Source: Klebsormidium nitens (lineage: Eukaryota > Plantae > Klebsormidiophyceae). Taken from it: a stretch of 43,540 nt of DNA. Shown here one piece after another: positions 3,077-23,495 of the stretch. The position numbers were made by a program, and so were the translations under genes. The stretch covers positions 1 through 43,540 of the forward strand of contig DF237545.1 in assembly GCA_000708835.1 (NCBI GenBank). Reading direction: 5' to 3'. The notes under the pieces were generated by a model that worked only from the letters and a program-made list of their open reading frames with translations, was not told the origin of the DNA and did not search any database. Each line of letters starts with the position of its first letter. Position 1 is the stretch's first letter.

Positions 3077-3899
3077 CAACTCTGGCAACCTCCGGGTCCC
3101 GGATAGGCCTCTACAAACAACGCCTGCGGCCTTTCTAAGTTTCTCGCCAGGTCCTCGTGATACCGACCGGAACTGTCTAAAGTGTACCCGTAGTCCAACG
3201 TGATAATTTCGACCGATTTTATTTCGAATTATTTTCCAACAATCCGACCAGGAAAGCGGAATTATTTATGCACATTCCGAAAACAATCCGAATGCCCTAT
3301 GTTCCCGGTAAGAAGGGGGTTTTAACTTTTAAGGCCGATTTTGGCCGCTTTGGGGCTTCTGAGGACCATTCTAGAATTATTTAACCTTTCCGAATTTCCA
3401 CTTCTATTAGGGACTGGTGAAATCGGAGTTATCAGACGGCCCGGGGGAAGCCTCCGGAATATTCTCCACCGTCCGATGAGACCCCCCGCCAGAATAAAAT
3501 TCGACTCGGAACACACTCGCGAACCAAATTAAGGACGGGGTAAAACCTCGTTTACATCGAAACCCGCAACGAATTCACTCGCGCCGCAAACGGCGGAACC
3601 TCGACCCACCGGGCACTGACCCCAGTCTGACCCCTCCCTGAACATCCGGAGCACACCTGCCACGTGGCATAACGAACAGAGACCGGGACCACTGAACGTG
3701 CCCTAGGTTCACTCGGAAAGTTACTGCTGGGCACGTTACGTGAGTCTCCCCGGTACATACCAATGACTTGGGTAGGAACCTCATGCCCAAGTCCAACTAG
3801 CAGTGCCATAATTTTGACATCTCAGTTTGACTGTTGTACGTAGAAACATGAAGTCCAAGACCAGCTAGCAGTCACCTTTTCAGGGCAAGGTAATGGTTT

Positions 3900-4041
3900 G
3901 AGCTCCCAGAACAAACCCTGGTGAGCTCCCATGTCCAACAGGGTTTGTTGAGCTCCCAGGTCCAACAGGGTTTGTTGAGCTCCCAGATCCAACAGGGTTT
4001 GTTGAGCTCCCAGGTCCAACAGGGTTTGTTGAGCTCCCAGG
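3900..4041 (+). repeat. 27-bp tandem repeat (GAGCTCCCAGGTCCAACAGGGTTTGTT) running into an assembly gap
   Basis: At least 4 near-identical units before the Ns at 4042. They are preceded by an inverted partial copy (AACAAACCCTG 3910-3920 vs CAGGGTTTGTT 3939-3949). Confidence 0.95.
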
Positions 4042-4784
4042 NNNNNNNNNNNNNNNNNNNNNNNNNNNNNNNNNNNNNNNNNNNNNNNNNNNNNNNNNNN
4101 NNNNNNNNNNNNNNNNNNNNNNNNNNNNNNNNNNNNNNNNNNNNNNNNNNNNNNNNNNNNNNNNNNNNNNNNNNNNNNNNNNNNNNNNNNNNNNNNNNNN
4201 NNNNNNNNNNNNNNNNNNNNNNNNNNNNNNNNNNNNNNNNNNNNNNNNNNNNNNNNNNNNNNNNNNNNNNNNNNNNNNNNNNNNNNNNNNNNNNNNNNNN
4301 NNNNNNNNNNNNNNNNNNNNNNNNNNNNNNNNNNNNNNNNNNNNNNNNNNNNNNNNNNNNNNNNNNNNNNNNNNNNNNNNNNNNNNNNNNNNNNNNNNNN
4401 NNNNNNNNNNNNNNNNNNNNNNNNNNNNNNNNNNNNNNNNNNNNNNNNNNNNNNNNNNNNNNNNNNNNNNNNNNNNNNNNNNNNNNNNNNNNNNNNNNNN
4501 NNNNNNNNNNNNNNNNNNNNNNNNNNNNNNNNNNNNNNNNNNNNNNNNNNNNNNNNNNNNNNNNNNNNNNNNNNNNNNNNNNNNNNNNNNNNNNNNNNNN
4601 NNNNNNNNNNNNNNNNNNNNNNNNNNNNNNNNNNNNNNNNNNNNNNNNNNNNNNNNNNNNNNNNNNNNNNNNNNNNNNNNNNNNNNNNNNNNNNNNNNNN
4701 NNNNNNNNNNNNNNNNNNNNNNNNNNNNNNNNNNNNNNNNNNNNNNNNNNNNNNNNNNNNNNNNNNNNNNNNNNNNNNNNNNNN
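4042..4784. other. assembly gap
   Basis: Run of N. Confidence 1.
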
Positions 4785-5072
4785 TAGGTCGGGACAGCCG
4801 GGACGGCTGGGACAGCCGGGGGACCCTTTCTGACCTCTAAAACGACTCGGGGACAGCGCGGTCAGCTGGGACAGCGTTTTGCGCCCTCGGAAGATTCCGA
4901 GAGAAAGTTTGGGGGTGTATTCAGGGTGGTATGGGTGGTTTCACAAACGAGGTCGTTTTTTCTATTTTCTGAGACTCTCGAAAGTGCTGTCCACGCTGAC
5001 GATGCTGTCCCCGACTCATTTATTTAATCGAAAAGGGGTACCAGGCTGTCCGAGCCGTCCCAGCTGTCTCTA
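4785..5072 (+). mobile_element. family-1 palindromic (GGGACAG/CTGTCCC) MITE-like element, copy A, left end lost in the gap
   Basis: Left arm GGGACAGCCGGGACGGCTGGGACAGCC...GACTCGGGGACAGCGCGGTCAGCTGGGACAGCG is an imperfect reverse complement (about 90 nt) of the right arm GTGCTGTCCACGCTGAC...CTGTCCCCGACTC...GGCTGTCCGAGCCGTCCCAGCTGTC. Confidence 0.7.
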
Positions 5073-5225
5073 GTCAAAGTCTCTTACTGCTTCTCTTGAT
5101 CATATAAAAGTATCAAGCAATGAGTAAGCAATCCGACACAGCCCATGCCGCTGCGCAGGGTGCACGAGAGCAGCAATCAGAGGACGCTCTTTCCTTCGAG
5201 GCCACCACACCGCAGGCGAGAACGT

Positions 5226-5515
5226 GCCACGTGTCAGCATCTGATGAGGCCAAACAGCCGGGACAGCTGGGACAGCCGGGAGACCCTTTCTGACCTCTCA
5301 AATGACTCGGAGACAGCGTGGTCAGCTGGGACAGCGTTTTGGTGTCGGGCCAGATTCTTAAAAAAGCTCTCGTATGGGTGGGTGTGCATTCAAGGTGGTA
5401 TGGGCAACTCAAATCTCAAATCTCCCAACTTCCGAAAACCCTGTCCTAGCTGACCACGCTGTCCCCAAGTGGTTTCAGAGTTCAAAAAGGGCTCCCCCAC
5501 TGTCCCAGCTGTTTC
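5226..5515 (+). mobile_element. family-1 palindromic element, copy B
   Basis: Starts GCCACGTGTCAGC, with a GGGACAG left arm and CTGTCCC right arm. Its right half is nearly identical to copy D. Confidence 0.7.
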
Positions 5516-5667
5516 TCATCATAGTCCTCTGATGGTTTTCTTAATGATACAAAACAGTAAGAAACAAGTGAGCAATTATATATGCAGGTCACAAGGAGGC
5601 AATCCATGGACGAATCCCCCTCTCCACAGGCCACTGCTGCAAAGGTAAGTTCTGCCTGTCGAGAGGT

Positions 5668-5785
5668 GCTACGTGTCAGCCTCTGATTGGCCGGGACAGC
5701 TGGGACTGCTGGGACAGCCAGGGAGCCCTTTTCGACCTCCGAAACCACTCGGGGACAGGGCGGTCAGCTGGGACAGCACTTTCAC
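5668..5785 (+). mobile_element. family-1 element, copy C (left arm only)
   Basis: CTACGTGTCAGCCTCTGATTGGCCGGGACAG...GGGACAGGGCGGTCAGCTGGGACAGC. No right arm is seen before the MSV199-like ORF. Confidence 0.6.
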
Positions 5786-5972
5786 TCTCTCTCAGATATT
5801 GCGAAAATGTCTTTTTTGCATTCGATGTGGTATGGGTCATCCAGATTTCACGCATAAAGGCATGAGGGAATTCACCCCTTGGTCAAGGGGATTGCATGAA
5901 AAGCGAGGACGCGCATTCTTATTCACGATATGTAACACAAATCTTCTTCGATCCTGAGGCTTCTGCCCCCGT

Positions 5973-6539
5973 TCACATATTGTACTCCTCAAAATATCCT
6001 GCTGCGTCTGTCTGGATCTGTTTTAGCATACATCGCAACTGTCTCTGCTTGAATCTTTCCATCTTGATCTGTGAGTATATCTGTTCTCGATAGCGCTTCT
6101 CGACCTCCATGTTCCAATTCTGCACGATCATTTGCGCTTGTTTCCTGTCTTTGCTCCGCTGCAGTTCTTGCGCTACCTCGTCACAACCTTCTCTGAACGC
6201 TCGGAAGAACAGCCGCACGTTGTCGCATGTCTCGCTCATTGCTACCATGGTGAAAGACTCGAAGGCAAAGGCAGTCATGTAGTGTTTGCGAACTGTGCGA
6301 GTTATTCTCACCGTGTAATCGACTCCTTCCTTAAAACCTTCGTGCTTTAGCTTGAGAATCCCGTCAGCTTTACTTGCGTACCCAACAAACCGCCAGACTT
6401 CATCAAGGTCGATCGGGAACTCGTTTCCCTCGTCGCTGAACGCCTTGAGAAAAACTGCAGCCAGGTTCTGATCGCCTTCGAACCTAGTTGCAGCCACTCG
6501 AGGATGCCCCAACACCGTCTGCAGGTCCATTGCCCCCAC
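5973..6539 (-). CDS. MSV199/KilA-N/AntA-like DNA-binding domain protein of large-DNA-virus type
   Basis: Intact, intronless 188-aa ORF. The motif FPIDLDEVWRFVGYASKADGILKL..GFKEGVDY resembles the FxIDLDxVWxWxGYxxKxxAxxxL...DY signature common in NCLDV proteins. The C-terminus is coiled-coil-like. Confidence 0.6.
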   Translation of the reverse strand: MGAMDLQTVLGHPRVAATRFEGDQNLAAVFLKAFSDEGNEFPIDLDEVWRFVGYASKADGILKLKHEGFKEGVDYTVRITRTVRKHYMTAFAFESFTMVAMSETCDNVRLFFRAFREGCDEVAQELQRSKDRKQAQMIVQNWNMEVEKRYREQIYSQIKMERFKQRQLRCMLKQIQTDAAGYFEEYNM

Positions 6540-6739
6540 CTAAGCGCCCTGTCTCGGATGTCTCCTCTCGGCACCATGGCGGTTCCTTATGACCCTCTCA
6601 CCCCAAGAATCCTCCCATGCCCAGATATGCCTTTGTTGTTCTCTGTTCAGGTCGACAAGAACACCGCTGCATTTGCGCGGGCTCAGGGGCATGAGGACGC
6701 TGCCACTGCTGCAGATGTAAGTTCTGCCTGTCTAGAGAC

Positions 6740-7025
6740 GCCACGTGTCAGCCTCTGATTGGTGGGGGACAGGTAGGACGGCCAAGACAGCCTGGGAGCC
6801 CGTTTTGACCTCTGAAACCACTCGAGGACAGGGCGGTCAGCTGGGACAGCGTTTTTGCTATCTCAGATATTGCAGGAAGGTCTCGGTGTATTCAAGGTGG
6901 TATGGGCAACCCGAATCTCAAATCTTCCAACTTCCGAAAACCCTGTCCTAGCTGACCACGCTGTCCCCAAGTGGTTTCAGAGGTCAAAAAGGGCTCCCCC
7001 ACTGTCCCACCTGTCCCAGCTGTTT
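6740..7025 (+). mobile_element. family-1 palindromic element, copy D
   Basis: GCCACGTGTCAGCCTCTGATTGG start, with both arms present. Confidence 0.7.
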
Positions 7026-7228
7026 CTCATCAGACTTGTCTAATGGTTTTCTTAATGAAACAAAAAGAGTAAGAAACAAGTAAGCAAATTTGTGCGCTAC
7101 CCGAACTTTTTGACGGACCTGTTGATAAGCCAGATCCAAGTCCAACCTGCAAGTACATTTCTCCCACTCCACGCAGGGCACGCAGAGACATCATATGCAG
7201 GCGACGCACGATCCGCAGGCCTTTGGTG

Positions 7229-8178
7229 NNNNNNNNNNNNNNNNNNNNNNNNNNNNNNNNNNNNNNNNNNNNNNNNNNNNNNNNNNNNNNNNNNNNNNNN
7301 NNNNNNNNNNNNNNNNNNNNNNNNNNNNNNNNNNNNNNNNNNNNNNNNNNNNNNNNNNNNNNNNNNNNNNNNNNNNNNNNNNNNNNNNNNNNNNNNNNNN
7401 NNNNNNNNNNNNNNNNNNNNNNNNNNNNNNNNNNNNNNNNNNNNNNNNNNNNNNNNNNNNNNNNNNNNNNNNNNNNNNNNNNNNNNNNNNNNNNNNNNNN
7501 NNNNNNNNNNNNNNNNNNNNNNNNNNNNNNNNNNNNNNNNNNNNNNNNNNNNNNNNNNNNNNNNNNNNNNNNNNNNNNNNNNNNNNNNNNNNNNNNNNNN
7601 NNNNNNNNNNNNNNNNNNNNNNNNNNNNNNNNNNNNNNNNNNNNNNNNNNNNNNNNNNNNNNNNNNNNNNNNNNNNNNNNNNNNNNNNNNNNNNNNNNNN
7701 NNNNNNNNNNNNNNNNNNNNNNNNNNNNNNNNNNNNNNNNNNNNNNNNNNNNNNNNNNNNNNNNNNNNNNNNNNNNNNNNNNNNNNNNNNNNNNNNNNNN
7801 NNNNNNNNNNNNNNNNNNNNNNNNNNNNNNNNNNNNNNNNNNNNNNNNNNNNNNNNNNNNNNNNNNNNNNNNNNNNNNNNNNNNNNNNNNNNNNNNNNNN
7901 NNNNNNNNNNNNNNNNNNNNNNNNNNNNNNNNNNNNNNNNNNNNNNNNNNNNNNNNNNNNNNNNNNNNNNNNNNNNNNNNNNNNNNNNNNNNNNNNNNNN
8001 NNNNNNNNNNNNNNNNNNNNNNNNNNNNNNNNNNNNNNNNNNNNNNNNNNNNNNNNNNNNNNNNNNNNNNNNNNNNNNNNNNNNNNNNNNNNNNNNNNNN
8101 NNNNNNNNNNNNNNNNNNNNNNNNNNNNNNNNNNNNNNNNNNNNNNNNNNNNNNNNNNNNNNNNNNNNNNNNNNNNNN
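7229..8178. other. assembly gap
   Basis: Run of N. Confidence 1.
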
Positions 8179-8629
8179 ATTCAAGACCGTAGGATGAGCA
8201 TCGTACGGCATATTTCAGGAGAGTAGGCCCACAAAAGTCGATTCCTAAGAATGAAACGTTTATAGCCTCGATTCGCCAAAGCATGTTCGTCCCGAGAGGG
8301 ACACCGGTGACAACCAAGCCGGAGGCGAGTGGTATGCAACACCGAAGGACGGACCTGCGAGAACCAAGCGGAGAAGACCCAAGTAGTTGCTAACACTGGA
8401 GGATGTAGATAGCCTCGAATGAACCTGGCGTTGCCAGGGGACGAGTCGGAGAGATGGCTCCGAGTCTCAGAAGCATGAGGGATTTGGTACTAGGCTAGAG
8501 GCGGGAGATAGCACGGTACACAGAAACATGAACAATGTTGCTCAAGTTTCATCCATCGGGTATAAGTTTAGGGAAGTTATTTTTTCTTCGAATCAAAATG
8601 CCAGTCAAAGCGTCGCATGGGCATGCCCT

Positions 8630-8745
8630 GCCACGTGTCGGCATCTGATTGGCTTGGCCAGCCGAGACAGCTGAGACAGCGGGGGGACACTTTCCGACCT
8701 CTCAAACCACTCAGGGACAGGGCGGTCAGCTGGGACAGCGTTTTG
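8630..8745 (+). mobile_element. family-1 element, copy E (left arm, degenerate right side)
   Basis: GCCACGTGTCGGCATCTGATTGG...GGGACAGGGCGGTCAGCTGGGACAGCGTTTT. Confidence 0.6.
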
Positions 8746-9469
8746 GGTGCGGTCGAGATTCGTGAGAAGCGGCTTGGTTCATTCGGGGCGGGATGGGGGA
8801 TATAAACAAGGAGGGATGTGCAAGTTTTGGAATAGCTCCCAACATCTCAAATCGTGCTGTCCTCTAGTCTTTTCAGAGGTCACAAGGACGCCCCAAACTG
8901 TCACAAGCCTTCCCAAATGTCTGTCTACTGCTTTCCGTACTTACGTCTGTCTCTTAGAGAAGATCGAGGGAGCTGCTCCCTGCATACAGACGTTTTGTTC
9001 ATATCTTTTGTGCAGGACGAAACCAATCTAGACGAGAGCACTGCTGTAGTTGCACCACGCGAGGAGAGATGTGCAGATCAGGGGGAGCAGGGGGTCGATC
9101 GCCTGTCGTCGCAGGCTGCGGTATCAGAGGTGAGTTGAAACGTTATCTGACCGTACGTCCTCGTGACTGCGAGTCGAGACAGGAGTGCCGTGTTGATGCA
9201 TCGGGGGTGCCACGTGTGAAACTCCCAGTCGTCCCAGCCGTCCTGATCAACTTTCTGTACTTAATATGTTGATCAATTCTTTCTAGTAGAAACGAAGCAC
9301 GATGTTCAGCTCCTTGTCCTCCTTCTCACGTGACTCTGTGCAGGATGCGATGAAGATAGACGAGAGCACTGCTGTGACAATGCGAGGCGAGGAGAGTTGT
9401 GCAGATCACGGCGAGCAGAGAGGCGATCACCCCACGCCGCATGCTGAGAGGTCAGAGGTAAGAATGGGT

Positions 9470-9772
9470 GCCACGTGTCACCAACTGATTGGTGGGACAG
9501 CCGAGACGGCTGGGACTGCCATGCACCCCTTTTGGACCCCTAAAAGCACTCGGGGACAGCGCGGTCATCTGGGACAGCGTTTTGCACCCTTCGGCAGATT
9601 TCGAGAAGAAAGTAGGGTGGTATGGGTGGTGTCGCAGACGAGGTGGTATGAGCAAGCTTTTCATTTTTTGAAAAACTCCTGAAAGTGCTGTCCACGCTGA
9701 CCACCCTGTCCCCGACTCATTTATCTAGTCAAAAAAGGGTACCAGGCTGTCCCAGCCGTCCCGGCTGTCTCT
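9470..9772 (+). mobile_element. family-1 palindromic element, copy G
   Basis: Full two-arm copy, closely similar to copies A and H. Confidence 0.7.
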
Positions 9773-10141
9773 ATTCAAAGTCTCTACTGCTTCTCTTAAT
9801 CAAATAAAAGTGTTAAGCAACGAGTAAGCGATCCGACACAGCCCATGCCGCTGCGCAGGGTGCACGAGAGCAGCAATCGGAGGCCGCCCCCATTACCGAG
9901 GCCGCCACACCGCACTTAATGGCGTCGAACGAGGTATGCCACGAGTTCGGACGCTCTGCACACTCCCACACAATAGCCCCCTGTCTCTCACTGTTTAAGA
10001 AAGGTGGTCCTATTCTGGCGTAGGTTGGCCACAAGGATTCGAAACCCGCTGAGCAAACCATGGGAGACTTGGTTCACCAGTAAAAAAATCGAACGAATCG
10101 CATGCCAACTGCAGCAAAGGTACGAGCATCTTGCGAACGGT

Positions 10142-10508
10142 GCCACGTGTCAGCAAATAATTGGTCGAGACAGCTGGGACGGCTGGGACAGCCGGGGGAC
10201 CCTTTCTGACCTCTGAAATGACTCGGGGACAGCGCAGTCGGCTAGGACAGCGTTTCTCACCCTTCGGTAGATTTTGAGAGAAAAGTAGGGTGGTATGGGT
10301 GGTGTCGCAAACGAGGTGGTATGAGCAAGCTTTTCATTTTTCCAGAAAACTCTTGAAAGTGCTGTCCACGCTGACCACCCTGTCCCCGACTCATTTATCT
10401 AGTCAAAAAGGGGTACCAGGCTGTCCCAGCCGTCCCAGCTGTCCCCGATCGACTCTACTCATTTTTTTCAATCGTTTCGAGAATATATGAATAGAGTTTG
10501 ACACGTGT
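10142..10508 (+). mobile_element. family-1 palindromic element, copy H, with CACGTGTCA...TGACACGTG outer termini
   Basis: Both arms present. Begins GCCACGTGTCAGC (10142) and is followed by TTTGACACGTGTC (about 10497-10509), the reverse complement of the start. Confidence 0.7.
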
Positions 10509-11092
10509 CTTTTGCCCTTCGATTGATACATAAGGAACCCGACGCACCTGGTTCGTCGCACCAGGCTCCGGTGGCGATGGAAGTGCAGCAGGAAGGGAGG
10601 GGTCTCAAGCGGCGTCGGTCGTTCGATGGGGGCCAGGTGAGTCGATGACCGCCACGTGTCGAATCCGCTTCGACGACTGAGTGGCCACCGCCATCCAGAT
10701 CTCTGAAAAGGAACAGGTGAGGTCCGCTTCAGAAGTAGAGGAAATATGACTGCGTCGTGATCTGCGAGAATCTAGTTTGCTCCCGACGCGGATCGCCCTC
10801 GACGAGACAAGGCCCCTCGTCTCACAGTGTCGCTCCGCCCATGTCGCAGAAGGCTCTCGCCCTGCGCTACAAAGCATGCGGGTATCCGGTATTCTCCGCA
10901 TCGATCTCCTGGGACGCCGCCAAGAACAAGAAGGTGCTCAGGATGCCCGATCGATGGCAGCGCTGCGACCTGCGAAACTGCCTGGCCTCTTTCTTCGACC
11001 CCATGGAGCCTGCCATCCTGATCAACACCACCACGTGCGACCTCGTAGCCCTCGACGCGGACGTCTGGACATGATGGGGGCATGTCCACTTT

Positions 11093-11797
11093 NNNNNNNN
11101 NNNNNNNNNNNNNNNNNNNNNNNNNNNNNNNNNNNNNNNNNNNNNNNNNNNNNNNNNNNNNNNNNNNNNNNNNNNNNNNNNNNNNNNNNNNNNNNNNNNN
11201 NNNNNNNNNNNNNNNNNNNNNNNNNNNNNNNNNNNNNNNNNNNNNNNNNNNNNNNNNNNNNNNNNNNNNNNNNNNNNNNNNNNNNNNNNNNNNNNNNNNN
11301 NNNNNNNNNNNNNNNNNNNNNNNNNNNNNNNNNNNNNNNNNNNNNNNNNNNNNNNNNNNNNNNNNNNNNNNNNNNNNNNNNNNNNNNNNNNNNNNNNNNN
11401 NNNNNNNNNNNNNNNNNNNNNNNNNNNNNNNNNNNNNNNNNNNNNNNNNNNNNNNNNNNNNNNNNNNNNNNNNNNNNNNNNNNNNNNNNNNNNNNNNNNN
11501 NNNNNNNNNNNNNNNNNNNNNNNNNNNNNNNNNNNNNNNNNNNNNNNNNNNNNNNNNNNNNNNNNNNNNNNNNNNNNNNNNNNNNNNNNNNNNNNNNNNN
11601 NNNNNNNNNNNNNNNNNNNNNNNNNNNNNNNNNNNNNNNNNNNNNNNNNNNNNNNNNNNNNNNNNNNNNNNNNNNNNNNNNNNNNNNNNNNNNNNNNNNN
11701 NNNNNNNNNNNNNNNNNNNNNNNNNNNNNNNNNNNNNNNNNNNNNNNNNNNNNNNNNNNNNNNNNNNNNNNNNNNNNNNNNNNNNNNNNNNNNNNNG
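11093..11797. other. assembly gap inside the primase-helicase gene
   Basis: Run of N. Confidence 1.
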
Positions 11798-12042
11798 AGC
11801 GGAGGACCCCTCATTCACACTGCGCCCATTGCTTCTCTTCCCTCCGTCGTTACCGACCCGTCATGTCAACTCTCTCAGATCTCGTGCTTTTCGACCTACG
11901 TCGCATTCGTACGCCTCTCATGCACGACTCGCTTTTCCCCTCCTTGGACCCCGTGCCCCTGCGTGATGAGGTCGTGTACTCTTACAGGTCTGAAAGGTGT
12001 GCGGGTCGCGGTATGCGAAGAGGCGAGCAACTCGGACACTCT

Positions 12043-12070
12043 GAACTCGAACTCGAACTCGAACTCGAAC
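12043..12070 (+). repeat. (GAACTC)4 microsatellite at the helicase frameshift
   Basis: gaactcgaactcgaactcgaactcgaacactcaag. The helicase frame changes at its 3' end. Confidence 0.9.
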
Positions 12071-12185
12071 ACTCAAGAAGCTGGTGGGGACGGAGGTCAT
12101 CACGAGCAGAGAACTGTACAAGGCATTCGTCACATTCGAGACGACCCAGCTGGTGAGATGACCTGACTAGATTGGAATTGGTGAC

Positions 12186-12390
12186 GTGCCACGCGTCACC
12201 GTCTGATTGGTGGGACAGACGAAATGACTGGGACGACCTTCGGGATGCCGGCCAGATTCTGGAAAGGATCCCATACCACCCAAGGCGGCATGACTTTTAC
12301 CGTTCCAGGATTCGAATGTGCTGTCCACGCTGACCACCCTGTCCCCCACTCTGATCGAAAATCGGTACCAGGCCGTGCCAGTCGTCTCGG
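12186..12390 (+). mobile_element. family-1 element, internally deleted copy I, inside the D5 helicase intron
   Basis: GCCACGCGTCACCGTCTGATTGGTGGGACAG...TGCTGTCCACGCTGACCACCCTGTCCCC...GGTACCAGGCCGTGCCAGTCGTC matches the ends and right arm of copies G and H. Confidence 0.75.
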
Positions 12391-13378
12391 AAACACCCTC
12401 GCCTACCCCTGCAGCACATACTCTGCACGAACGAACTTCCCGCACCCGAGAGCAGCTGGACGATCGCCCTGCAGCGACGGATCACGATGGCCTACTTCAT
12501 GAAGAGGTACTTCGCCTCAATCGAGGATGGCTACGACCCAGACAACCCACTGCACGGCAGGGCTGATCCCACGCTGATGACGAAGTTGTCCGACTTCGTC
12601 AACCAAGCGGCGTGCTTGGTCTTCCTGGTTCAAGGGGCTGTCAGCTACTTCCGAGACGGTCAAAAGCTGCTGGAGATGCCATCCAGGAGCCGCGATATCA
12701 TGAACAGCTACCAACTCTCGACGGACCCATTCTTAGCCTTCCTTGACAACAGCTGTGTTGTCGGAGACTACTTCGTGGGATCCAGGGAGCTCCTGGACGA
12801 GTACAACAACGGAAACAGGAAGGTCGATGGCAAAGAGGTTGGACGCCTCGTCAAAATTGATGCTAGCCAGCTGAAGCGTATGATGCAACTAAGGGGTTTT
12901 GAGGAGCCTAACAAGGCGCGGACCCTCGGATTCTCGGAGTTTGGCGCGACCAGAGGTTACAAAGGTCTCAGGCTCAAGACCGATGTCGAGTTAGAGAACG
13001 ATGCAGAATAGTTAGAGATGCATTGTGGGCATTTGGTGTGATTATGTACATTAGTCGTTCAATTGTGTAGAGTATCGAGATCGACATACAAGGTTTAAGA
13101 TCGTACTTTTAGCTGAGCGGTTGTAGGAGCTAGCTGAGTACTTGGGCAAAGCGGCACATTCGATTGTTCTCTCTTGTACATTGTACATATCGTTATTGAT
13201 GTTTCGTTCACCCTTATTAAGCAACACAGCGCACAACATCGCTCGTGATGACCGCAGCAAATAATAAGCGTCCAAATGGCGCTACTAGGACATGACGCAA
13301 AAAAACAAAATGGGTCTAGGCGATTCCTTGGTTTTAAGGTTTTAGGGTCATGTCTATCTGTAAACCTTGACGTATTTA

Positions 13379-14749
13379 CTAGCTCCGTTTCCGCTTTCGT
13401 CCTACCGAACCACCTCCAGCATCGCTCTTCCATTCGAACCCGTCATAGAACATCTGCTCCACAGTCAGTTCGCGATCGGGCACGTGCGCGAGATGATAAC
13501 GCAGACGCTCGATGTGTGCGCTCATGCGGGCCTCCCACATAGATTGGTCCCGGATCACTGGCACTCCGATCTTGTTGTGCTTGAAGCAGCTTGGGTATCT
13601 GGTCCCGTCCGCAGATGTGAACCCGTCTGGATTGAACCGGAGCTGCACCTGGGGGCGGTTGCCCGCATCCTGGAAGAGCTCCATCAGCCTCTTGTTCTCA
13701 CACGTAGTGCTCCGGTGCTGATCTTCGTCGTTCTCACAGTGCACCGTATGAGTATACAAGTCCACGAAGATGTCGGGCCTCCTCCCCGAACAGCCCCCTT
13801 GGATCCGCTTGTCGAAGGTGATACCCGCATCCTCTGAAAGGACGCCTGCCGCCTCGATGTAATCAGTAAAGTGCTGCTCCTTGACCTTGTAGTTGCGAGA
13901 CACCTTCTCGCCTGGGAACAAGTGCACGAAACACCGCAGACAGTGTCCTTTGTAGCGCTCATGAACGGCCCTCGTACCGCACCCGTTAACGCACTTCAAG
14001 CTGTGTATGTCCAGCATATCATCGGACTTGCATTTGCAACAATGTGTAGCCTTGCCGCCCTCCAGGCCGAACGTAGGCTGCGACCTTCCACAGACGCACT
14101 TGGGGCTTTTTACGTCCACCATATCTTCAGACTTGCATTTGCTGCAGTGACTAGCCCTGCCGCCTTTGAGTCCGAAGTTCGGCTGCGAATTCCCACAGGT
14201 GCACCTCGCTGCCCTGACATCCGCCATGTCGACAGACCTGCAATTGTTGCAGTGAGTGGCTCTGCCGCCTGCAAGTCCAAACGAAGGCCTCGTCCCACAG
14301 GCGCACCTCGGGTGCCTAACGTCCACCATATCGTGGGACTTGCATTTGCTGCAGTGGGTGGCTCTTCCCCCTTCAAGTCCAAAGCTAGGCCGCCCCCTCC
14401 CACAGGCGCACATCGGGTCTCTTACATTCAGCATATGGTGGGACTTGCATTTGCTGCAGTGGGTCGCCTTGCCCCCTTCGAGTCCGAAACTAGGCCGCCC
14501 TTTCCCACAGGCGCATTTTGAGTGTCTTGCGTCGAGCATATCGTCGGACTTGCATTCGCTGCAATGGGTGGCCCTTCTCCCTTCGACTCCGAACGTAGGT
14601 TGCCTCCTCCCACAGGCGCACTTCGGATTCTGTACGTCCACCATACTGTTGGACTTGCATTTGCTACAGTGAGTCGCCTTGCCGCCCTTGGATCCAAAAG
14701 TAGATCGCGCCCTACCACAGGCACACTTCTGGCCGACTACTTTCACCAT
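13379..14749 (-). CDS. Cys-rich repeat (EsV-1-7-like) protein with a C-terminal restriction-like (PD-(D/E)xK/Vsr-type) endonuclease, NCLDV type
   Basis: Intact, intronless 456-aa ORF with seven ~35-aa repeats CxCGxxxPxFGLEGGxATHCSKCKSxxMxDV. These are followed by KVKEQ...FDKRIQGGCSGRRPDIFVD...CENDEDQH...CENKRLMELFQD...LRFNPD, a pattern I recognise from giant-virus endonucleases. Confidence 0.8.
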   Translation of the reverse strand: MVKVVGQKCACGRARSTFGSKGGKATHCSKCKSNSMVDVQNPKCACGRRQPTFGVEGRRATHCSECKSDDMLDARHSKCACGKGRPSFGLEGGKATHCSKCKSHHMLNVRDPMCACGRGRPSFGLEGGRATHCSKCKSHDMVDVRHPRCACGTRPSFGLAGGRATHCNNCRSVDMADVRAARCTCGNSQPNFGLKGGRASHCSKCKSEDMVDVKSPKCVCGRSQPTFGLEGGKATHCCKCKSDDMLDIHSLKCVNGCGTRAVHERYKGHCLRCFVHLFPGEKVSRNYKVKEQHFTDYIEAAGVLSEDAGITFDKRIQGGCSGRRPDIFVDLYTHTVHCENDEDQHRSTTCENKRLMELFQDAGNRPQVQLRFNPDGFTSADGTRYPSCFKHNKIGVPVIRDQSMWEARMSAHIERLRYHLAHVPDRELTVEQMFYDGFEWKSDAGGGSVGRKRKRS

Positions 14750-14914
14750 TTTTGTAGATGGAAAGCTCTGAATGGGTTGTCGCCCTGCTTATCTTTCTAT
14801 GTTTTAAGTGCCCCCCCTTTGCTTTCTTAAGCCACACGACGATTTCAAAAGGGACGGCAAAGTCCCTGGCCTGGCTCCATTGGTCCTTGGAAAGAAATAT
14901 CTCCAGAGTTCGGA

Positions 14915-17900
14915 ATGGTCGATGCTAGGCGTACATCGGGTCTTTTCATTTCCTTACAACGCAATGTGCGCGCGCAGTGCGCGTCTGCATATGTAAACTT
15001 CAGAAAGATTAAGCACCCTGGACGACTCAGCATCTGGCTCTTGGGAGCGGGCAAGTCGAGAGAGCTATTCCATGGCCTCCTGCCCCGCCTCGCCCCCGAA
15101 GCCTCCGTCTGTCTGATCGCTCCGAACATCGCACTGGCGCGGAAGTACCACGAAGAGACCAAGAGGAAGGGCCTGGACTACGTCTGCTACCTCGACGAGC
15201 CTGGGGGGAAGATCAGCGCACGGCGGGTGGTGGTCTGTGTCAACTCCTTACCGAGAGTGCTGCCGCGCTTCGACATGGTGGTCATGGACGAGGTCAACTT
15301 CACGCTGACCAACATGGCGTCCACAGTTATGAAAGACAAGAAGCAGGTAAGAATGAGGTCGGAGGGTCGGACATGTCTCGGGCCCACCCATGACAAGGCA
15401 TTCGGTACCTTGGTCTTCGAGTGCCCGGCGATCATACTCTGTCGAAAAACGAGCTCTCTTTCGCTTGCAAGGTTTTCATGGCCCTGGAAGGGGTCGTGGC
15501 GGGCGCTAAGGCAGCGTTCCTGTGTGATGCCCACCTCAACTGCCCCCGTGTGGTGGAGTGGATCTAGGCCCTGCGGCACACAAGCCGCTTCTACACCATC
15601 CGGAACCGTGGCGTCTGGCCCTCGTCGCGAAAGGCCTTCATATTGCCGATGCCCGGGCCGTTGGTGGGAAGAGGGCAGCCAAAAGCCACATACTCTCTCG
15701 TGGTCGATGGTATCGTGGACCTCGTCGCAAGCGGGAAGACGGTCATGGTGAGAGAGCTGTCAGAAATTCGCACATTCCCACATGACCTGCCACGGGGCCA
15801 CCTCTTCCCCATCTTGAGCACACAGGGCCACAGGCCACAGAAAAAATAGCTTCCGAGATACAAGAAGGTTATAAATTTAGGAGAGTTTTTTTTCTTGACT
15901 CGTTTCGCTAGTCAGACCTTCGCACACCACCACCACGACGTGCCACGTGGCCACCTGAGCACCCAGGGCCACGGCCACAGAAAAAAAAGCTTCCGAGATA
16001 CAAGAAGGTTATAGATGATTTAGGAGAGTTATTTTTTCTTGACTCGTTTTGCTAGTCAGATCTTCGCACACAAAAACGACCTGCCACGTGGCCATCTCTT
16101 CTCCATCTTGAGCACCCAGGGCCACGGGCCACAGAAAAAATAGCTTCCGAGATACAAGAAGGTTATAAATTTAGGAGAGTTATTTTTTCTTGACTCGTTT
16201 TTGCTAGTCAGACCTTTGCACACCACCACCACGACGTGCCACGTGGCCACTTGAGCACCCAGGGCCACGGGCCACAGAAAAAAAAGCTTCCGAGATACAA
16301 GAATGTTATAGATTTAGGAGAGTTTTTTTTTTCTTGACTCGGTTTTGCTAGTGAGCTTTGCCAGCTGGTTGGTGTGTGCTGCACGTTAAGGATGGTTGTC
16401 AGATGACGAAGCTTTTCGAGCGACGCAGATACCCGCCACGAGTAAGACGTTCGTGGAGCTCCTGGAGGTGGAGTTCAAGGCCCGACTCCCGGGGAAGAAT
16501 CTCATCGCCTTCCACGGAGCTAAGAGAGAGGGGGCCGACAAGAGACTGCTGCAGCATGCGATTTCCAACCCGAACGATGCGCTTATCGCCGATTGCCTCG
16601 CATTCACGCCCACCATAGGCCCCGGTGTTTCTATCGAGAAGAAGGGGAGCTACGATTTGGTAATCGGGGTGGCGGTCAACTCCGACAACCACCCCGACGC
16701 CCAGGTGCTGATGCAGCAGATTCAGAGAGCTCGCGATGCCGGCGACATCCGGATTTACTACGGCGAGATCCAGAGCCGTCGGAAGGTCGCCTACCCTACC
16801 ACCAAGGAAGAGGTGTTCCAGATGCTAGAGAACAGCGATCTGCAGCTCGCAGACTTGATGCAAGGGGTCTCCGTGGACCATCTGGACATGCTGCGGGCTG
16901 CCCCCGGAGAGCGTGCTATCTATGACAGGAGCTCTGCAACGTGCAATCTGTACGCCAACAACCTGCTGGGCCGTCTACAGAGCCGGCAGTACTACATTCA
17001 TCTCTTGACAGAAGACCTTCGGCGACAGGGGGTGACTGTGGTCAACCAGTTGAACGTTCGAACATGGGGAGGGGATGCAGAAGTTGAGCTGGTGGCGAAA
17101 GAGGAGCTCGTCGACGAAACGATCGAGCAGTGGCGCGAGAGACACCTCGTCTCGTGGGAGCAATTTGAGCGGATAAGGGGAATGATGAGCTCTCCGTCCG
17201 GGGGCGTAAGCAGACAGGACGTCCTGAGGTATGAGATATTCGATGCAGCCGTTTTCTGCTACGGGATTCAGTATGAAAAGGTCGACCCCGAGTTCGTGGC
17301 TGAGTTCGTCCAGGGAAAGCACGCGAAGGACCTCATGACGAAATTCAAGAGCTACGAGAGGTAAGACTCCGTCCTCCCTCTGTGCACTTTCTGGTTTCTC
17401 CGGGGCTTTCTCGGCATGGTTTTACAACCTCTCGCGCTTGCATCGCATCTTTGAATTTCTGCGTGTGTGCAATGTACTATGAGGCAGAAGTCAGACTGAT
17501 GATGACGAGGGTTTGTCTTACAGGTTCGTGACTTCAACGTATGCCTCTACCATCGGGACCCTCAGCGCGGCTATCGAGGAGGGGGAGCAGAAGCGGAACA
17601 TCCAAGAGTACCTTGAAGTCAGGGATAGGTCGGCAAACGGGATCACGTATGCCTGGTGCGTGTTGGCAGCCTTAGTGGGTATACCTGCTGAGAAGGTTGA
17701 GAACACGGTGTTCGGGAGCTACAAGATTGTGGATGGACGGTTGGGGGAGGAGATGCTGTCCGCGGTCTTTGACATGGACGACTTTAACATGTCTGCTTCG
17801 CTCGAAACCCTCGAGAGGTTATTCAAGCCGCGGACGTCGTTCGCTGGGAAGGAACTGACGATCACACGGAGGAGGAACGTGATCAAGATGGTCTTGGAGG

Positions 17901-18073
17901 GAGGCTTAGGTCTGACGATACGGTTGGCACACTTTTCAAACGGGTGTCGTCGGGGATTTCACCGGATAGTCCCCATACAGAAGTGGAGGGCCCTGGATGA
18001 ACGGTACGGAGGGCTGAAGGACAAACTGGTCGAGAAAAAGAGCAAGCCTTGTCTCGTGGAAATCGATGAGTAG
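14915..18073 (+). pseudogene. UL9/origin-binding-protein-like SF2 helicase, 4 exons, one in-frame stop
   Basis: Exon 1 (to 15346): LGAGKS (Walker A), VVCVNSL, VVMDEV (Walker B). Intron 15347-15471. Exon 2 (15472-15747): FLCDAHL, with TAG at 15565. Intron 15748-16428. Exon 3 (16429-17360): FTPTIGPGVSI...QQIQRAR. Intron 17361-17523. Exon 4 runs to 18073. All junctions are GT-AG and keep the frame. Confidence 0.8.
15790..16355 (+). repeat. family-2 tandem repeat, 4 units of 140-154 bp with GCCACGTGGC palindromes, inside helicase intron 2
   Basis: The unit anchor GGCCACAGAAAAAA...GCTTCCGAGATACAAGAA occurs at 15833, 15973, 16127 and 16270. Units 1/3 and 2/4 share diagnostic variants. Confidence 0.95.
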
Positions 18074-18601
18074 ACGGGTCGATGATAGACGGGGCGACAT
18101 GCAGGATGATCATACGTAGTTGATATGAATTTTAATGAGGGAAGTGTGTACATATGTTATCTTCTGCGAGGTCAAGTGTACATGAATCGGTCACCAGCGG
18201 CGAGGGGAGCTCTCCCACCCGCTGATGGATAGAAGGAAGTGCAAGTTGAGCTGTATCATATATGTAGACGAGTGACTGGACGGCCGATGATGTGACCGAG
18301 GCTGCCAATTCATGCAAGATTGTTGCTTGACGGGTATTCGGCGTATTGATGAAAAATGCATGACCACAACGTAAATTCCCGACACGAAGGTGGGTGCTTG
18401 ATGTTAAGTACTGTGGGAACGGTCCTCAGCACTTGAGTGCGCTCATTTTCCACCGGAGTTGACGACTCTCTATCATTTTGTTGGGCTCGGCCGACAAAGT
18501 AAAAGTGCGTCCTCCATGCGGAGCTCAATGTCGTTGCCAAAGCAGTTTGGGCGTCTCAATGCACGGTGCGACGTGCCTTGAAATCACTATTCTAAATCTG
18601 A

Positions 18602-18626
18602 TTAAATCACTGATTTAGTGATTTAA
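18602..18626. other. AT-rich perfect hairpin TTAAATCACT-GATTT-AGTGATTTAA
   Basis: 10-bp perfect inverted repeat with a 5-nt loop, among further AAATCA copies from 18581. Confidence 0.7.
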
Positions 18627-19429
18627 ACTAATCATGATCATCCCATTAGGGGGCCCGGAAACTGTGCATCATACGGATGGGTGTAGGTGCTATACGTGAG
18701 CAGAAGAATGGTGCTTGCCCAAAAATCGTGTTGAGGATCAAGCATTGTTCTCTTGGTAGAATCTACATCGAAGCACAGATCTTGTTGGGCCGGGAATTTG
18801 TGAGGGACATGGGGGTCCCAGTATTGTGTGAGGAGGAAGAACATCAGACAATCTGACCAGTCTCTCCCCGGGATAGAGTGCAAGGGTGCAACTCAGATGA
18901 CGCTCGCGTGAGCAAATGAAGTCAGACTTCTCGCCTCTCCGACTATTAAGGCTTGAAAACGGTTTCTTATTGCATTGCGTTCTGGGAATTGTTCAAACGA
19001 AACCAAATACTCCTTCTTTGTATTTTCACTTTCTTGTTGACAGCTGAGCTGGGGTTATATGCCTTGAATGTTCAAGCAACTTTGTGATGTCTAGTACTAC
19101 AAATAGTATCTTAGGCCGAGGCACAATCCTTGAGACATTACCCTAAGCAAAGCACTGTTACAGTGTGATATGACAGTCTGTGCACTGTAGATTCCAACAT
19201 TGTTATGAAGTAATGTGAAGAAGGAGAGTTGATGGAACTTGCACATCAAGCTTGCTGGGCACATCAGGACGACAATATCAAGTTCCACATGTGTCTGCTT
19301 TCATGCGTCTATATTCTGTCATTTGTATCATTCATGACATTTCCTTCTGCTTTTCAGAGTTGTTAGTCTGTGTCCTGTGCGTGTAATGTCATCATAGTAT
19401 TGTTTCCTTAGCACCCCAAAGCAGAACCT

Positions 19430-20065
19430 TCAAACCTCAAGATTGCTTCTGATGGGATCTGTACCATCAATCTGATCAATTATCCAAGTAGAGAATGAAT
19501 GCATTAGCTCTCGATCTGGATTGCCTGTCAGCCAGTACTTTGCTACAATACCCATAAGATACTTGCATGTGAAGTGAGGACCTCTCATAGCTCCCTCCCG
19601 TCCTCTGGTTGCTTCTTTGAAGACGATATCCAAGGGAATGATGAGCTGATAATAAATGCGAGCCCGAACCAACCATACCCCTTGATTACTTCTCCAGAAT
19701 TCCGCTCCAAGATTCAGATTTTTGATTCTCTCCCAAAACAATTTTAGATGCTCTCTATTTGAAGCCACCTCCCTTATTTGTGCTTTATCAATCTCACTTT
19801 TTGATATATGCATGTTGCGATACTTTTCCATAACTTTGACCATGTCTTTGACTGTTCCTTGGCCGAAATTTACTTGCGCACCTTGATCCACTGCAAATCT
19901 TGCCAGATCGCCTGCCGCAGGGCTACATTTGCTATAACTGTCCATTATGTCTGACATCAGCTCCTTTCTTTCTTTCTTCCTGCTGAAATAGAATGAAATA
20001 GCAAATAATGTGACGGTCAGGATTGCGTTGCAAATCCCCAGCAGCAATGCTGCAGACCAGGCCAT
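19430..20065 (-). CDS. hypothetical protein with one N-terminal hydrophobic/TM segment
   Basis: About 211-aa open frame from the ATG at 20065. MAWSAALLLGICNAILTVTLFAISFYF is followed by SRKKERKE. No family recognised. Confidence 0.5.
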   Translation of the reverse strand: MAWSAALLLGICNAILTVTLFAISFYFSRKKERKELMSDIMDSYSKCSPAAGDLARFAVDQGAQVNFGQGTVKDMVKVMEKYRNMHISKSEIDKAQIREVASNREHLKLFWERIKNLNLGAEFWRSNQGVWLVRARIYYQLIIPLDIVFKEATRGREGAMRGPHFTCKYLMGIVAKYWLTGNPDRELMHSFSTWIIDQIDGTDPIRSNLEV

Positions 20066-21637
20066 GCTGCCTACAATGAGACAGCCGCAACGTATCAAAA
20101 CTACTCCTCTTTACGCCCGGTGTGCCTACTTCGCCAAGTTTTGTGCACTCGGTGGATACAAGATGGGAAGCTTCCGGCCTCAAATGAGCCCCACCCTTTG
20201 AATTCTAAACCCCCACCCACGCGCACTCGCGCCGAGTTATCAAAGCAGCACCATGCGCGCACCGGATTCCGCCGCACGTCCGGCGAAAGCGAATAAGTGA
20301 GGCAAGTCCACATAGCATTCGCTGCCACAATTTAAGCCGCACTCCCAGAACAGCTAGGGGGAACAAAATACTTGTCTAATATACCCGTCTTCTACTCGAG
20401 GCAGCTGCTTTGATCTCCACCAATGGCGATGGAACTTCAGGATATAATTCTCTTAAATGCAGGAGTCGATCTCTATGATGCAACTTCACTCAGAAGACAA
20501 TATAAGCTGCCAAGGCGTCGTGGCCTTACGTGCTCTCCTGTAAATGCCGATTCCATCTGCTCCTTTGTAGTTTCTTGACACATTATGTAGTTTCTGGACA
20601 CTTTCTAAGCATCATTCAGAGCCAATTTAACATGTCATTCTGCATTCATGGCTCTAGCGTAAAGAACCACATTTATGCGTTACGAACAATCAACCTGGCA
20701 GGCTGCCCTGATGCTCACTATGGGTCACTCTTCTGCCTGTCCACCTGTCAACATCAGCTCACGTGTATCTAGCAGGGCGCCATAAAAATGCTTCTGATGT
20801 AACACATTTGATGCTACCAAAACCAACCAGCGCCATTGGTAGCCTCAGGTGACGTCCCCCTCCCATTTCTTTTGGCAACTCTGTCATCTCCCCAATACAA
20901 AACCAAAACAAGAGTTGAGAGAGTATGTCTCACGCGTTTCGGGAAACCTGAGGACGTGTGATAACGCCATCATCCTTTTATACCCACCTTACAGTCTTGG
21001 TTCTGTCGACATTACATACGAAAAAGTAGTGGCAGCCAATTTCAAGCTCGCTGATATTTAGGTCATATAATCTAGAAGCACCTGATTGGAGCTCTTGCCC
21101 CCAGTGTTTTCACATATCCTGAAACCCGTTTCGCCAGGTGCCCGTGTCCGACAGAGCCTCCGCTGGCACCCCATCTTCAGGCGCGCGCGACGGCAGCGGC
21201 ACTGCTGTTGGACCTTGAAGCTGCAGCACCCGAAAGAGGCACTGTTCGCAGGTAGGGTCTACAATAGCTCGAACTAATGAGCGAGATCGCAAACAAGAAC
21301 GTGCGACACCGTCCATCCCGATTCGCTATCCCTCCATGCCGCCCGGGATTCGGGCCGCCTCCGAGAACGACACGGAACAATTTCGCTTCCGAGTTCTATG
21401 AAAGTGTATATACTAGAGTTTGTTTTTTTCCCGCTGGTCGATTCGCGTATGAGAGCTAGGCGGGGGCAAGCAGCCGCTGATCTCGTGACACGTGTCCCCA
21501 CAGACCGCCTGGAATCTCCGGGTATGCTCCCGTCCTGCCACGTGTATCGCTTTCATCGGTCGCCCTCCCTTCAGAGTCGGGCCTCCGACGGCGCTCCATC
21601 TTCTGACGACCCGGGCGACAGCATCGAGCTCAACATT

Positions 21638-21664
21638 CAATAACAATAACAATAACAATAACAA
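21638..21664 (+). repeat. (CAATAA)n microsatellite
   Basis: caataacaataacaataacaataacaa, just upstream of a TTCAG acceptor. Confidence 0.9.
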
Positions 21665-21869
21665 ATTCAGGAGGAGCGGTCCAGCGAGAGCCAGACCAGC
21701 GGCTCTCTGGCAGACCTCAGAGACGATGTCGGCACCCCCCGGGAAGGTGCGGCGTTCTACCCGGCCATCGACAACGAGCATGCAGCAGCACTGGAAGATC
21801 ACAATCTGCAACAGGTCGGCATCTATATTCCTTCTGCAGACCGTTGTTCCAACCTCCGCATGCGGGCCA

Positions 21870-22910
21870 ATCCTCCAAAATATGACCGTGACATTACGGA
21901 TTGCCTCCTCAAAAAAGTGGACAGGACTGACTCGTGCCGCCAGATCCAACCGGCGGACAAGTCCTCGGCCCCCAGGGCCAACCGTCCACATTCTGACTGT
22001 GACATTACGGATTGGCTCATCCAAAATGTGGACAGTACTGGCTCGTGCCCCCAGGGCCAACCGTCCACAATCTGACTGTGACATTACGGATTGCCACCTC
22101 CAAAATGTGGACAGGACTGGCTCGTGCCCCCCGGGCCAACCGTCCACATTCTGACACTGACATTACGGATTGCCTGNNNNNNNNNNNNNNNNNNNNNNNN
22201 NNNNNNNNNNNNNNNNNNNNNNNNNNNNNNNNNNNNNNNNNNNNNNNNNNNNNNNNNNNNNNNNNNNNNNNNNNNNNNNNNNNNNNNNNNNNNNNNNNNN
22301 NNNNNNNNNNNNNNNNNNNNNNNNNNNNNNNNNNNNNNNNNNNNNNNNNNNNNNNNNNNNNNNNNNNNNNNNNNNNNNNNNNNNNNNNNNNNNNNNNNNN
22401 NNNNNNNNNNNNNNNNNNNNNNNNNNNNNNNNNNNNNNNNNNNNNNNNNNNNNNNNNNNNNNNNNNNNNNNNNNNNNNNNNNNNNNNNNNNNNNNNNNNN
22501 NNNNNNNNNNNNNNNNNNNNNNNNNNNNNNNNNNNNNNNNNNNNNNNNNNNNNNNNNNNNNNNNNNNNNNNNNNNNNNNNNNNNNNNNNNNNNNNNNNNN
22601 NNNNNNNNNNNNNNNNNNNNNNNNNNNNNNNNNNNNNNNNNNNNNNNNNNNNNNNNNNNNNNNNNNNNNNNNNNNNNNNNNNNNNNNNNNNNNNNNNNNN
22701 NNNNNNNNNNNNNNNNNNNNNNNNNNNNNNNNNNNNNNNNNNNNNNNNNNNNNNNNNNNNNNNNNNNNNNNNNNNNNNNNNNNNNNNNNNNNNNNNNNNN
22801 NNNNNNNNNNNNNNNNNNNNNNNNNNNTTTCAAAATGTGGACAGGACTGGCTCGTGCCCCCAGATCGAACCGGCGGACAAGTCCTCGGCCCCCAGGGCCA
22901 ACCGTCCACG
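21870..22910 (+). repeat. family-3 array 1: 79-bp units with a palindromic core GTCCACATT...AATGTGGAC; spans a gap
   Basis: Core starts at 21984, 22063 and 22142 (period 79). The array resumes after the Ns at 22828. Confidence 0.95.
22177..22827. other. assembly gap within family-3 array 1
   Basis: Run of N. Confidence 1.
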
Positions 22911-23209
22911 TTTGGCCTCGGATGTACTATGTATCCAAGGGCGATGCCAGAATGCCAGCCGACTCCTGCGTGCGTCCCTCCTTGCAGCCCTCGACTCCCA
23001 TCTCTACCCCGTCGCATTTGCGCGAAGTCCAGCAGCCCGCTGTTAACCGAGAAGCGCACACCGAGAGCGATCCGGGCTTCGGAGATGCCGCCAGCAACGG
23101 AGCAGAATCCAACGCATCCACCGACGGCGAGCGTGCAGCTGCGTGGCGCCGTGACAGTTTGCCGAAGGTGAAGTTATTCATAGCCCCTCGAACCAGTCGT
23201 CTATTCTGT

Positions 23210-23300
23210 GCACCCAGAGCCAACCGTCCACATTTTGAAAGAGGCAATCCATAATACCATGATCAAAATGTGGACGAGTCTGTCTCGCGCACCCAGACCG
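23210..23300 (-). repeat. single family-3 unit with the core in reverse orientation
   Basis: GCACCCAGAGCCAACC-GTCCACATTTTGAAAGAGGCAATCCATAAT...CAAAATGTGGAC is the reverse complement of an array-2 unit. Confidence 0.85.
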
Positions 23301-23495
23301 ACCGGCAAAAACAGAAAATGCTTTCCCTCAGGGCCAACTCTTACTTCCAGGTGGCACGGCCAGTAGGTCAGGCCGACCTTCGAAACTTCACATTCTACAA
23401 GCCTATTTTCCAACATATTCACGTGCTTCCCTCGTCGACTACGCGTACCAATCATCAGAACGATTGTCTTTTTGAATTCACAGGCAAGGAACGCA

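Follow-up and report, generated by a model that had tools for sequence, protein, structure and literature searches.

The question raised by the locus described here is whether a repeated DNA element has made the introns in which it lies or has entered introns that were already in place. The locus, found at 4785-13011 on the forward strand of contig DF237545.1 from Klebsormidium nitens (assembly GCA_000708835.1), reads as a single gene in which a series of short predicted exons is followed by a primase-like exon and two helicase exons. The complete stretch of 43,540 nucleotides that was analyzed is referred to as the window. One hairpin-forming repeat, 200-370 bases in size, fills eight predicted introns of this one gene, nearly all that it has. 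A preliminary description had proposed that the repeat creates or colonizes introns in virus-derived genes and had raised the possibility of an introner. Introners, which resemble miniature inverted-repeat transposable elements (MITEs), are transposons that generate introns; they are found in Micromonas, Aureococcus, dinoflagellates, and other organisms.

The colonizing half of that proposal is supported, given that one copy, designated J, lies in a conserved, non-duplicated exon context. The creating half is not supported, for the intron position of J is older, most other copies go with duplicated exons or exon ends, and no copies were found elsewhere. The account favored here, and held with moderate confidence, is that of a low-copy fold-back repeat, present at one virus-derived primase-helicase locus, which entered pre-existing predicted introns and whose later increase in number came mostly from duplication, tandem or segmental, of exon-intron modules. 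This ordinary route is preferred over intron creation.

The intron within the helicase core

Copy J (12187-12390, forward strand) is internally shortened, with nhmmer E values of 1e-06 for its head and 1.7e-14, and is positioned in a predicted phase-0 intron of 262 nt at 12153-12414. The last helicase exon, which follows it at 12415-13011 (forward strand), is open for 198 residues to its stop codon and provided 53 phmmer matches, the best with a value of 2.6e-40. The nearest named matches are Klebsormidium nitens SF3 helicase proteins with identities of 42-44%, and one of the SF3-helicase matches, P0005, carries D5_N and DUF5906. The proteins GAQ92800.1 and GAQ86625.1 are K. nitens paralogues. 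The helicase exon upstream of the intron (11988-12152, forward strand) was read by comparison of its three-frame translation with P0005. A word search with the helicase exon against longer proteins gave no matches. As the preliminary description had it, a conserved motif (FETTQL|HILCTN) is interrupted by the intron in phase 0; the same region is continuous in P0005, which reads ...YVTFETTQLHILCTN.... The accompanying argument, namely that tandem exon duplication cannot explain this copy, also holds, since the exon context is conserved and not duplicated; J is a clean independent case.

In the annotated, spliced K. nitens protein P0055, the corresponding region reads ...TFTATVL|LIICTN. An unspliced metagenomic open reading frame (ORF), P0057, which is listed with P0055 in one cluster of proteins formed at 90% identity, is identical to it from LIICTN on, with ...EPLLQ|LIICTN at the boundary. 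It aligns to the read-through ORF of the window from LQ|HILCTN. P0003, which is 46% identical, starts with LQ|HLLCTN, and both P0036 and P0070 read HLPLQ|HVVLT. These sequences suggest that the homologues have an intron at this very codon boundary, a position that the Klebsormidium-type homologues (41-46% identical) share with two further groups of homologues. Against the element, the 47 residues of P0057 that derive from intron sequence give no significant match. The shared position, together with the unlike intron end in the homologues, indicates that the intron predates the element. The anticipated novelty of intron positions is thus contradicted at J, the sole site at which it can be judged. 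By these sequence comparisons, the element did not create the helicase-core intron.

Anatomy of the repeat family and predicted splice signals

That the repeat family exists, as had been claimed, is clear from an nhmmer profile built from five copies. The profile detects eight significant copies, all on the forward strand and all within 4785-12390 (7.6 kb), and the motif GCCACGTGTC, with at most one mismatch, occurs 24 times as compared to an expected 2.46. In a full copy, the head (GCCACGTGTC..CTGATTGG) is asymmetric and is accompanied by two arms of ~83 nt, imperfectly inverted with respect to each other and built from GGGACAGC-like units, and by a tail that extends nearly to the predicted acceptor. 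Both head and tail lie outside of the palindrome.

Copy A (4785-5133, E of 2.2e-84) consists of the palindrome and tail, its 5' side being cut by a block of Ns at 4042-4784. Its arms, delineated by 4793-4875 and 4986-5068, are complementary at 64 of 84 positions. Copy B (5224-5586, E of 9.6e-110) fills a predicted intron of 372 nt with a GC donor (5216-5587), for which the calculated RNA fold is -164.1 kcal/mol with a z of -8.89. Copy C (5667-5849, E of 5e-46) contains the head and left arm alone, corresponding to profile positions 2-195, and belongs to the predicted intron 5645-6650. Copy D (6739-7098, E of 2.1e-107) lies after a donor at 6717, with a block of Ns from 7229, and copy E (8629-8979, E of 1.8e-87) has partly lost its right arm. 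Remnant F (9208-9295, forward strand), with a head and the end of a right arm, is located in the predicted intron 9130-9343 and reaches a marginal E of 0.011 for 9223-9295. Copy G (9468-9833, E of 2.4e-110) fills the predicted intron 9458-9828 (371 nt), and its arms, at 9496-9578 and 9687-9769, are complementary at 65 of 84 positions. Copy H (10141-10508, E of 1.6e-108) occupies the predicted intron 10120-10534 (415 nt). The right arm of copy J contains a 26-nt core identical to those of G and H.

Long inverted arms are observed in A, B, D, G, and H, and whole-element palindromes in B, D, and H; the arms of J measure merely ~20 nt. Long inverted repeats, a feature by which MITEs and fold-back elements are recognized, are therefore present (arms of ~83 nt in A and G and a fold z of -8.89). 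Compensatory changes affect 5 of the 84 hairpin pairs among five copies, and the covariation term, +5.86, is unfavorable, such that the hairpin looks inherited rather than selected. A scan of 4785-13100 against Rfam with E values up to 0.1 gave no matches. Nested in the predicted intron of copy C is an ORF of 188 residues (5973-6539, reverse strand) for which neither Pfam nor PHROGs provided a match. A paralogous unit without this nested ORF is present in the genome contigs (joint 5882 to 7124).

According to the preliminary description, the element starts 12-37 nt downstream of a splice donor in seven cases. The coordinates are right, with offsets of 12, 25, 25, 14, 24, 16, and 37, but the pairs do not represent seven independent copies, as they share duplicated exons or exon ends. 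The donor at 5216 is GC rather than GT. The start listed at 10653 corresponds to an exact 10-mer, GCCACGTGTC alone, at 10651-10660 (forward strand) in the predicted intron 10637-10849. The profile has no match there at E values up to 10, and its interpretation as a decayed copy was dropped for want of profile support. Neither copy E nor remnant F obeys the spacing of 12-37 nt. Indeed, no recognizable donor is found within 40 nt upstream of copy E (8632), which begins 72 nt after the end of another repeat, and the head of remnant F (9211) is separated from its predicted donor by 81 nt. The statement that most introns are little more than the element applies to B (372 nt), G (371 nt), H (415 nt), and J (262 nt), which are mostly element, with the reservation that the arms of J are short. 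Where predicted introns consist almost wholly of element, closeness to the donor is automatic. The introns of B, D, G, and H resemble one another from 12-25 nt past the donor to near the acceptor. The initial 12-37 nt vary. For J, the resemblance is confined to the interior of the intron, the element being flanked there by 37 and 25 nt of other sequence. The donor-to-head spacers vary in length and are not significantly alike. Their derivation from a module termed U, described below, was rejected against shuffled sequences (the lowest p was 0.05 among 32 comparisons).

Three runs guessed to be RNA, with the same species label, were searched for contigs on the locus. Runs X17 and X21 contained none and X14 contained three, namely an exact match to 8331-8496, a 38-nt piece of a paralogue, and a 95% paralogue of 12633-12896. 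None of the X14 contigs falls on an element intron or a junction or covers the exons that flank the introns, and they have no bearing on expression. For 11797-21796, no source of RNA was listed.

Duplicated modules, distribution of copies, and competing explanations

The short predicted exons, all on the forward strand, follow one another in the order a1, b, b', c1, c2, a2, b2, and d. Exon a1 (5120-5215; 96 nt, open, phase 0) is a paralogue of a2 (9829-9933), the two being 92% identical (repeat D13) with a local alignment z of 43. Exons c1 (9016-9129; 114 nt) and c2 (9344-9457) are likewise paralogues, with a local alignment z of 27.9 and many differing residues. Homology of exon b (5588-5644; 57 nt) to b' (6651-6716) and b2 (10024-10119, which has an in-frame stop) is limited to its final 12-19 nt and includes the donor (repeat D16, 88% across the exon end and donor). 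Exon d (10535-10636; 102 nt, open, with a KRRR motif) is unique. Exon likeness was judged by local alignment scores relative to those of shuffled sequences; a semi-global comparison of exon identity proved uninformative in that shuffled exons gave 0.76.

Duplicated exons or exon ends are common to copies A and G, to C and H, and to B, C, D, and H. The block A-a1-B-b-C recurs as G-a2-(90-nt remnant)-b2-H, and in a genome contig from run X1, position 7228 is followed by 4785, evidence of a tandem unit of ~2.4 kb. This joint predicts that more modules lie within the blocks of Ns. Duplication of exon-intron modules is thus observed for A and G with a1 and a2, for F and G with c1 and c2, and for the exon ends of C, D, and H. 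It is not observed for J or between the exon classes a, b, c, and d. The 90-nt predicted intron behind a2 (9934-10023) starts with GTATGCCACGAG... and looks like a counterpart of copy B without the palindrome.

The locus was also found at ~90-99% identity in four other runs (X5, X6, X7, and X9). At the site of remnant F, run X6 contains a complete element (joint 9217 to 4792), and in X5 copy E is missing 8650-8905; the head-only remnants are thus internal deletions of an unstable palindrome. The helicase intron of X6 contains a D-like head (joint 12167 to 6740). No joint corresponding to exact removal of an intron occurs among the best-supported joints listed for the four runs, a weak negative. 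Visual inspection of the ends of homology in J, G, and H, which are uncertain and come from few copies, revealed no target site duplications (TSDs).

The preliminary description had called for a count of copies throughout the genome. In the other 36 kb of the window, neither blastn nor nhmmer revealed a convincing copy of the element. The source organism is represented by four DNA runs of one sample, which contain 67-97% of the words of 11797-21796, and contigs of one run were aligned at >=80% identity on the 8.3-kb stretch of the locus. The summed depth of the 89 contigs so placed is 13-39 in most element bins and 21-40 in non-repeat bins, with two bins at 68-82 that are consistent with cross-placement of local copies and a paralogous unit. 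There is, then, no excess over the element at >=80%, where depth is a rough measure and not a copy number. The result argues against a large family, while leaving room for diverged copies. The right-arm pattern was absent from viral and from metagenome contigs, an element-spanning ORF used as a protein query gave no matches, no loci related to this one were found in viral contigs, and none of 58 candidate stretches in metagenome contigs was confirmed. Dispersed copies across a genome, characteristic of both introners and MITEs, were thus seen neither in the window nor in the contigs nor in public collections. A literature search on introners in Klebsormidium returned no relevant work.

According to the favored account, the element would enter introns that already exist, and most of its subsequent copies would stem from short exon-intron modules that were duplicated in tandem or segmentally, not from formation of new introns. 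One or a few insertions or conversions at the DNA level may have placed it in non-homologous introns such as that of J. Folding of the strong hairpin (z of -8.9) would loop the insert out of pre-mRNA, thereby keeping the splice sites close and making the insertion tolerable. Closeness to the donor would be a consequence of short host introns and shared descent, with no targeting rule. Several observations weigh against this account. No significant similarity links the helicase exon and the exon classes a, b, c, and d to one another, and yet the introns behind them are ~80-84% alike over ~115 nt; besides co-duplication, either several insertions or a gene conversion restricted to the element must therefore be supposed. 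In B and G the head lies merely 2-4 nt behind the donor hexamer, and all copies have one orientation, as would those of an introner carrying splice signals. No transposase, TSD, or other signature of insertion was found, blocks of Ns conceal 2.4 kb of the locus, and the absence of copies elsewhere rests on short contigs aligned at >=80%, for which depth is not copy number and diverged copies would be missed.

A true introner would be mobile, would bring or recruit splice signals, and would make an intron wherever it lands; the family seen here in virus-derived genes would then be young or very local. The sense orientation of all eight profile-significant copies, the predicted introns B, G, H, and J with little beyond the element, the similar introns behind dissimilar exon classes, and the heads 12-37 nt from predicted donors would all accord with it, and MITE-like introners with terminal inverted repeats are known (PMC9860276). 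Nevertheless, it is deemed unlikely. The one position that can be tested against homologues, that of J, is an old shared intron site, no copies were seen outside one locus, no TSD was seen, and the spacers between donor and head are unequal in length and not significantly alike. Moreover, the copies are confined to one gene and to partly paralogous regions, which the published screen excludes (PMC9860276). In the window, the contigs, and the public collections searched, the element does not show itself as a genome-wide introner, and the introner reading is not supported. A more restricted version, in which a hairpin-cored intron unit was copied into several non-homologous positions of an endogenized giant-virus replication gene, with a related head module in the intron of the neighboring gene, is regarded as improbable to a similar degree. 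If true, the locus would be a live example of virus-derived genes gaining and multiplying host-type introns.

It is likewise doubtful that the introns are non-working, with a local repeat amplified in a decaying endogenous viral gene whose "exons" would be remains that have ceased to undergo splicing or translation. Such decay would explain the in-frame stop in b2, the stop that ends the primase-like exon, the many unlike residues of c1 and c2, and a frame change in the helicase exon (VAVCEE... versus ...LKKLVGTEV). The latter coincides with an (AACTCG)n microsatellite at ~12040-12075 and reflects either the decay of a pseudogene or a fault in the assembly. On the other hand, the lengths of all eight short exons are multiples of three and seven of the eight are open in one frame. 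Of the predicted introns examined, seven of eight have a GT donor (B has GC), and each of the seven 3' ends that could be placed is AG, five of them CAG. In addition, the position of J is spliced in an annotated Klebsormidium gene model, and the locus has been kept at 90-99% identity in four other runs. It is thus inferred from the sequence that the segments between the repeats are real, if predicted, exons. Least probable of all is a selected intronic module, whose oriented TGCCACGTG...CTGATTGG head would be regulatory or whose hairpin would be a small-RNA precursor, the copies being kept alike by selection or concerted evolution. The sequence TGCCACGTG occurs 12 times versus an expected 0.40, always on the forward strand except for the palindromic pair 3658/3661. 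The head persists in remnants without arms and recurs in a second repeat family within the predicted intron of the neighboring gene, and the hairpin is very stable. The hairpin has no covariation support, however, no Rfam match was obtained, and simple deletion of the palindrome also predicts retention of the head.

Surroundings of the locus and comparison with known systems

The ORFs beside the gene match Herpes_ori_bp and EsV-1-7 repeats, and accordingly the label "virus-derived" given in the preliminary description is a fair one. The exon at 10850-11074 (forward strand), as translated, corresponds to the N-terminal part of a domain that we take from its motif to be primase-like, although there is no Pfam match. 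It has a stop at its end, just before a block of Ns. Such blocks lie at 4042-4784, 7229-8178, 11093-11796, and 22177-22827 of the window. On the reverse strand at 13379-14788 is a frame of 469 residues with seven EsV-1-7 cysteine-rich repeats (Pfam E of 6.3e-35), encoded by 105-nt tandem DNA repeats.

The U module (8558-8631, forward strand), located in front of copy E, is common to tandem repeats at 15759-16361 (blastn: 71% over 82 nt, E of 4.7e-07; 74% over 61 nt, E of 9e-06). The latter comprise approximately four units of ~147 nt in a predicted intron (donor GTGAGA at ~15748) of the adjoining Herpes_ori_bp-like gene. Each unit contains TGCCACGTGGCC, preceded by a module with homology to 8558-8631; this second repeat family therefore shares its head with the element family. 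The TGCCACGTG sites span 3658-21544, with another at 37761, and 11 of the 12 fall in the virus-derived part (3.6-21.5 kb). On the reverse strand, the head plus CTGATTGG presumably resembles a CCAAT-N9/10-CACG stress-response element, a candidate assignment. The repeat at 8179-8559 is a different one and has no counterpart in Rfam; its end at 8558/8559 is sharp in runs X1, X5, X6, and X9, with several contigs per run. Farther along, 79-nt tandem repeats with small internal palindromes (D2, D9, and D15) at 21864-25904 flank a primase-like ORF at 23500-24300. Two inverted near-copies, 34622-35431 (reverse strand) and 40116-41177 (forward strand), encode a cysteine- and proline-rich protein of the membrane type, the second copy being lengthened by 21-nt tandem repeats (40738-41052).

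Fold-back and MITE-type non-autonomous DNA repeats are known to land in existing introns. The present element is like them in its long imperfect inverted arms of short subrepeats, in its interior position in J (flanks of 37 and 25 nt), and in its proneness to deletion. It is unlike them in that no dispersed copies, TSD, or partner transposase were seen and in that its asymmetric head and tail lie outside of the palindrome. The fungal introner-like elements associated with van der Burgt (2012) and Collemare (2013) reportedly occur in many unrelated genes, with both splice sites in the conserved unit. Whole-intron units and an unusually stable predicted secondary structure are shared with these, whereas here there is one locus and the donor-proximal 12-37 nt vary.

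With respect to introners themselves, PMC9860276 describes a screen that counts sequence-similar introns across non-paralogous genes. To count as a family there, four or more introns must resemble each other over more or less their full length, the similarity beginning near the intron-exon boundaries, and secondary insertion of transposable elements into intron interiors is treated as a separate cause of intron similarity (PMC9860276, Gozashti et al. 2022). The locus resembles an introner family in its sequence-similar introns, inverted repeats, sense orientation, and introns roughly equivalent to the element. It differs from families counted genome-wide in non-paralogous genes in that there is one locus, with many duplicated exon flanks (a1/a2, c1/c2, and the b-type ends were duplicated together with their introns), no TSD was found, and the testable intron is older. 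Given the requirement for non-paralogous genes in the published text, the element family would be filtered out by such a screen. The locus serves as a caution that intragenic and paralogous copies should be excluded from introner screens, and, given RNA data, it could provide a small test case for the tolerance of long hairpins in short introns.

The gene itself can be compared with endogenous giant-virus genes of green algae, with which it has in common a D5-like primase-helicase, Herpes_ori_bp-like and EsV-1-7 repeat neighbors, and host-type GT-AG introns, here predicted. In an integrated green-algal giant virus, 61 of 506 genes contain introns, and the origin of such host-type introns is treated as an open question in the available portion of the report (bioRxiv 10.64898/2026.10.09.758095). 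Whereas repeat-filled or paralogous introns are not described in that portion, the predicted introns of the one gene presented here share one repeat.

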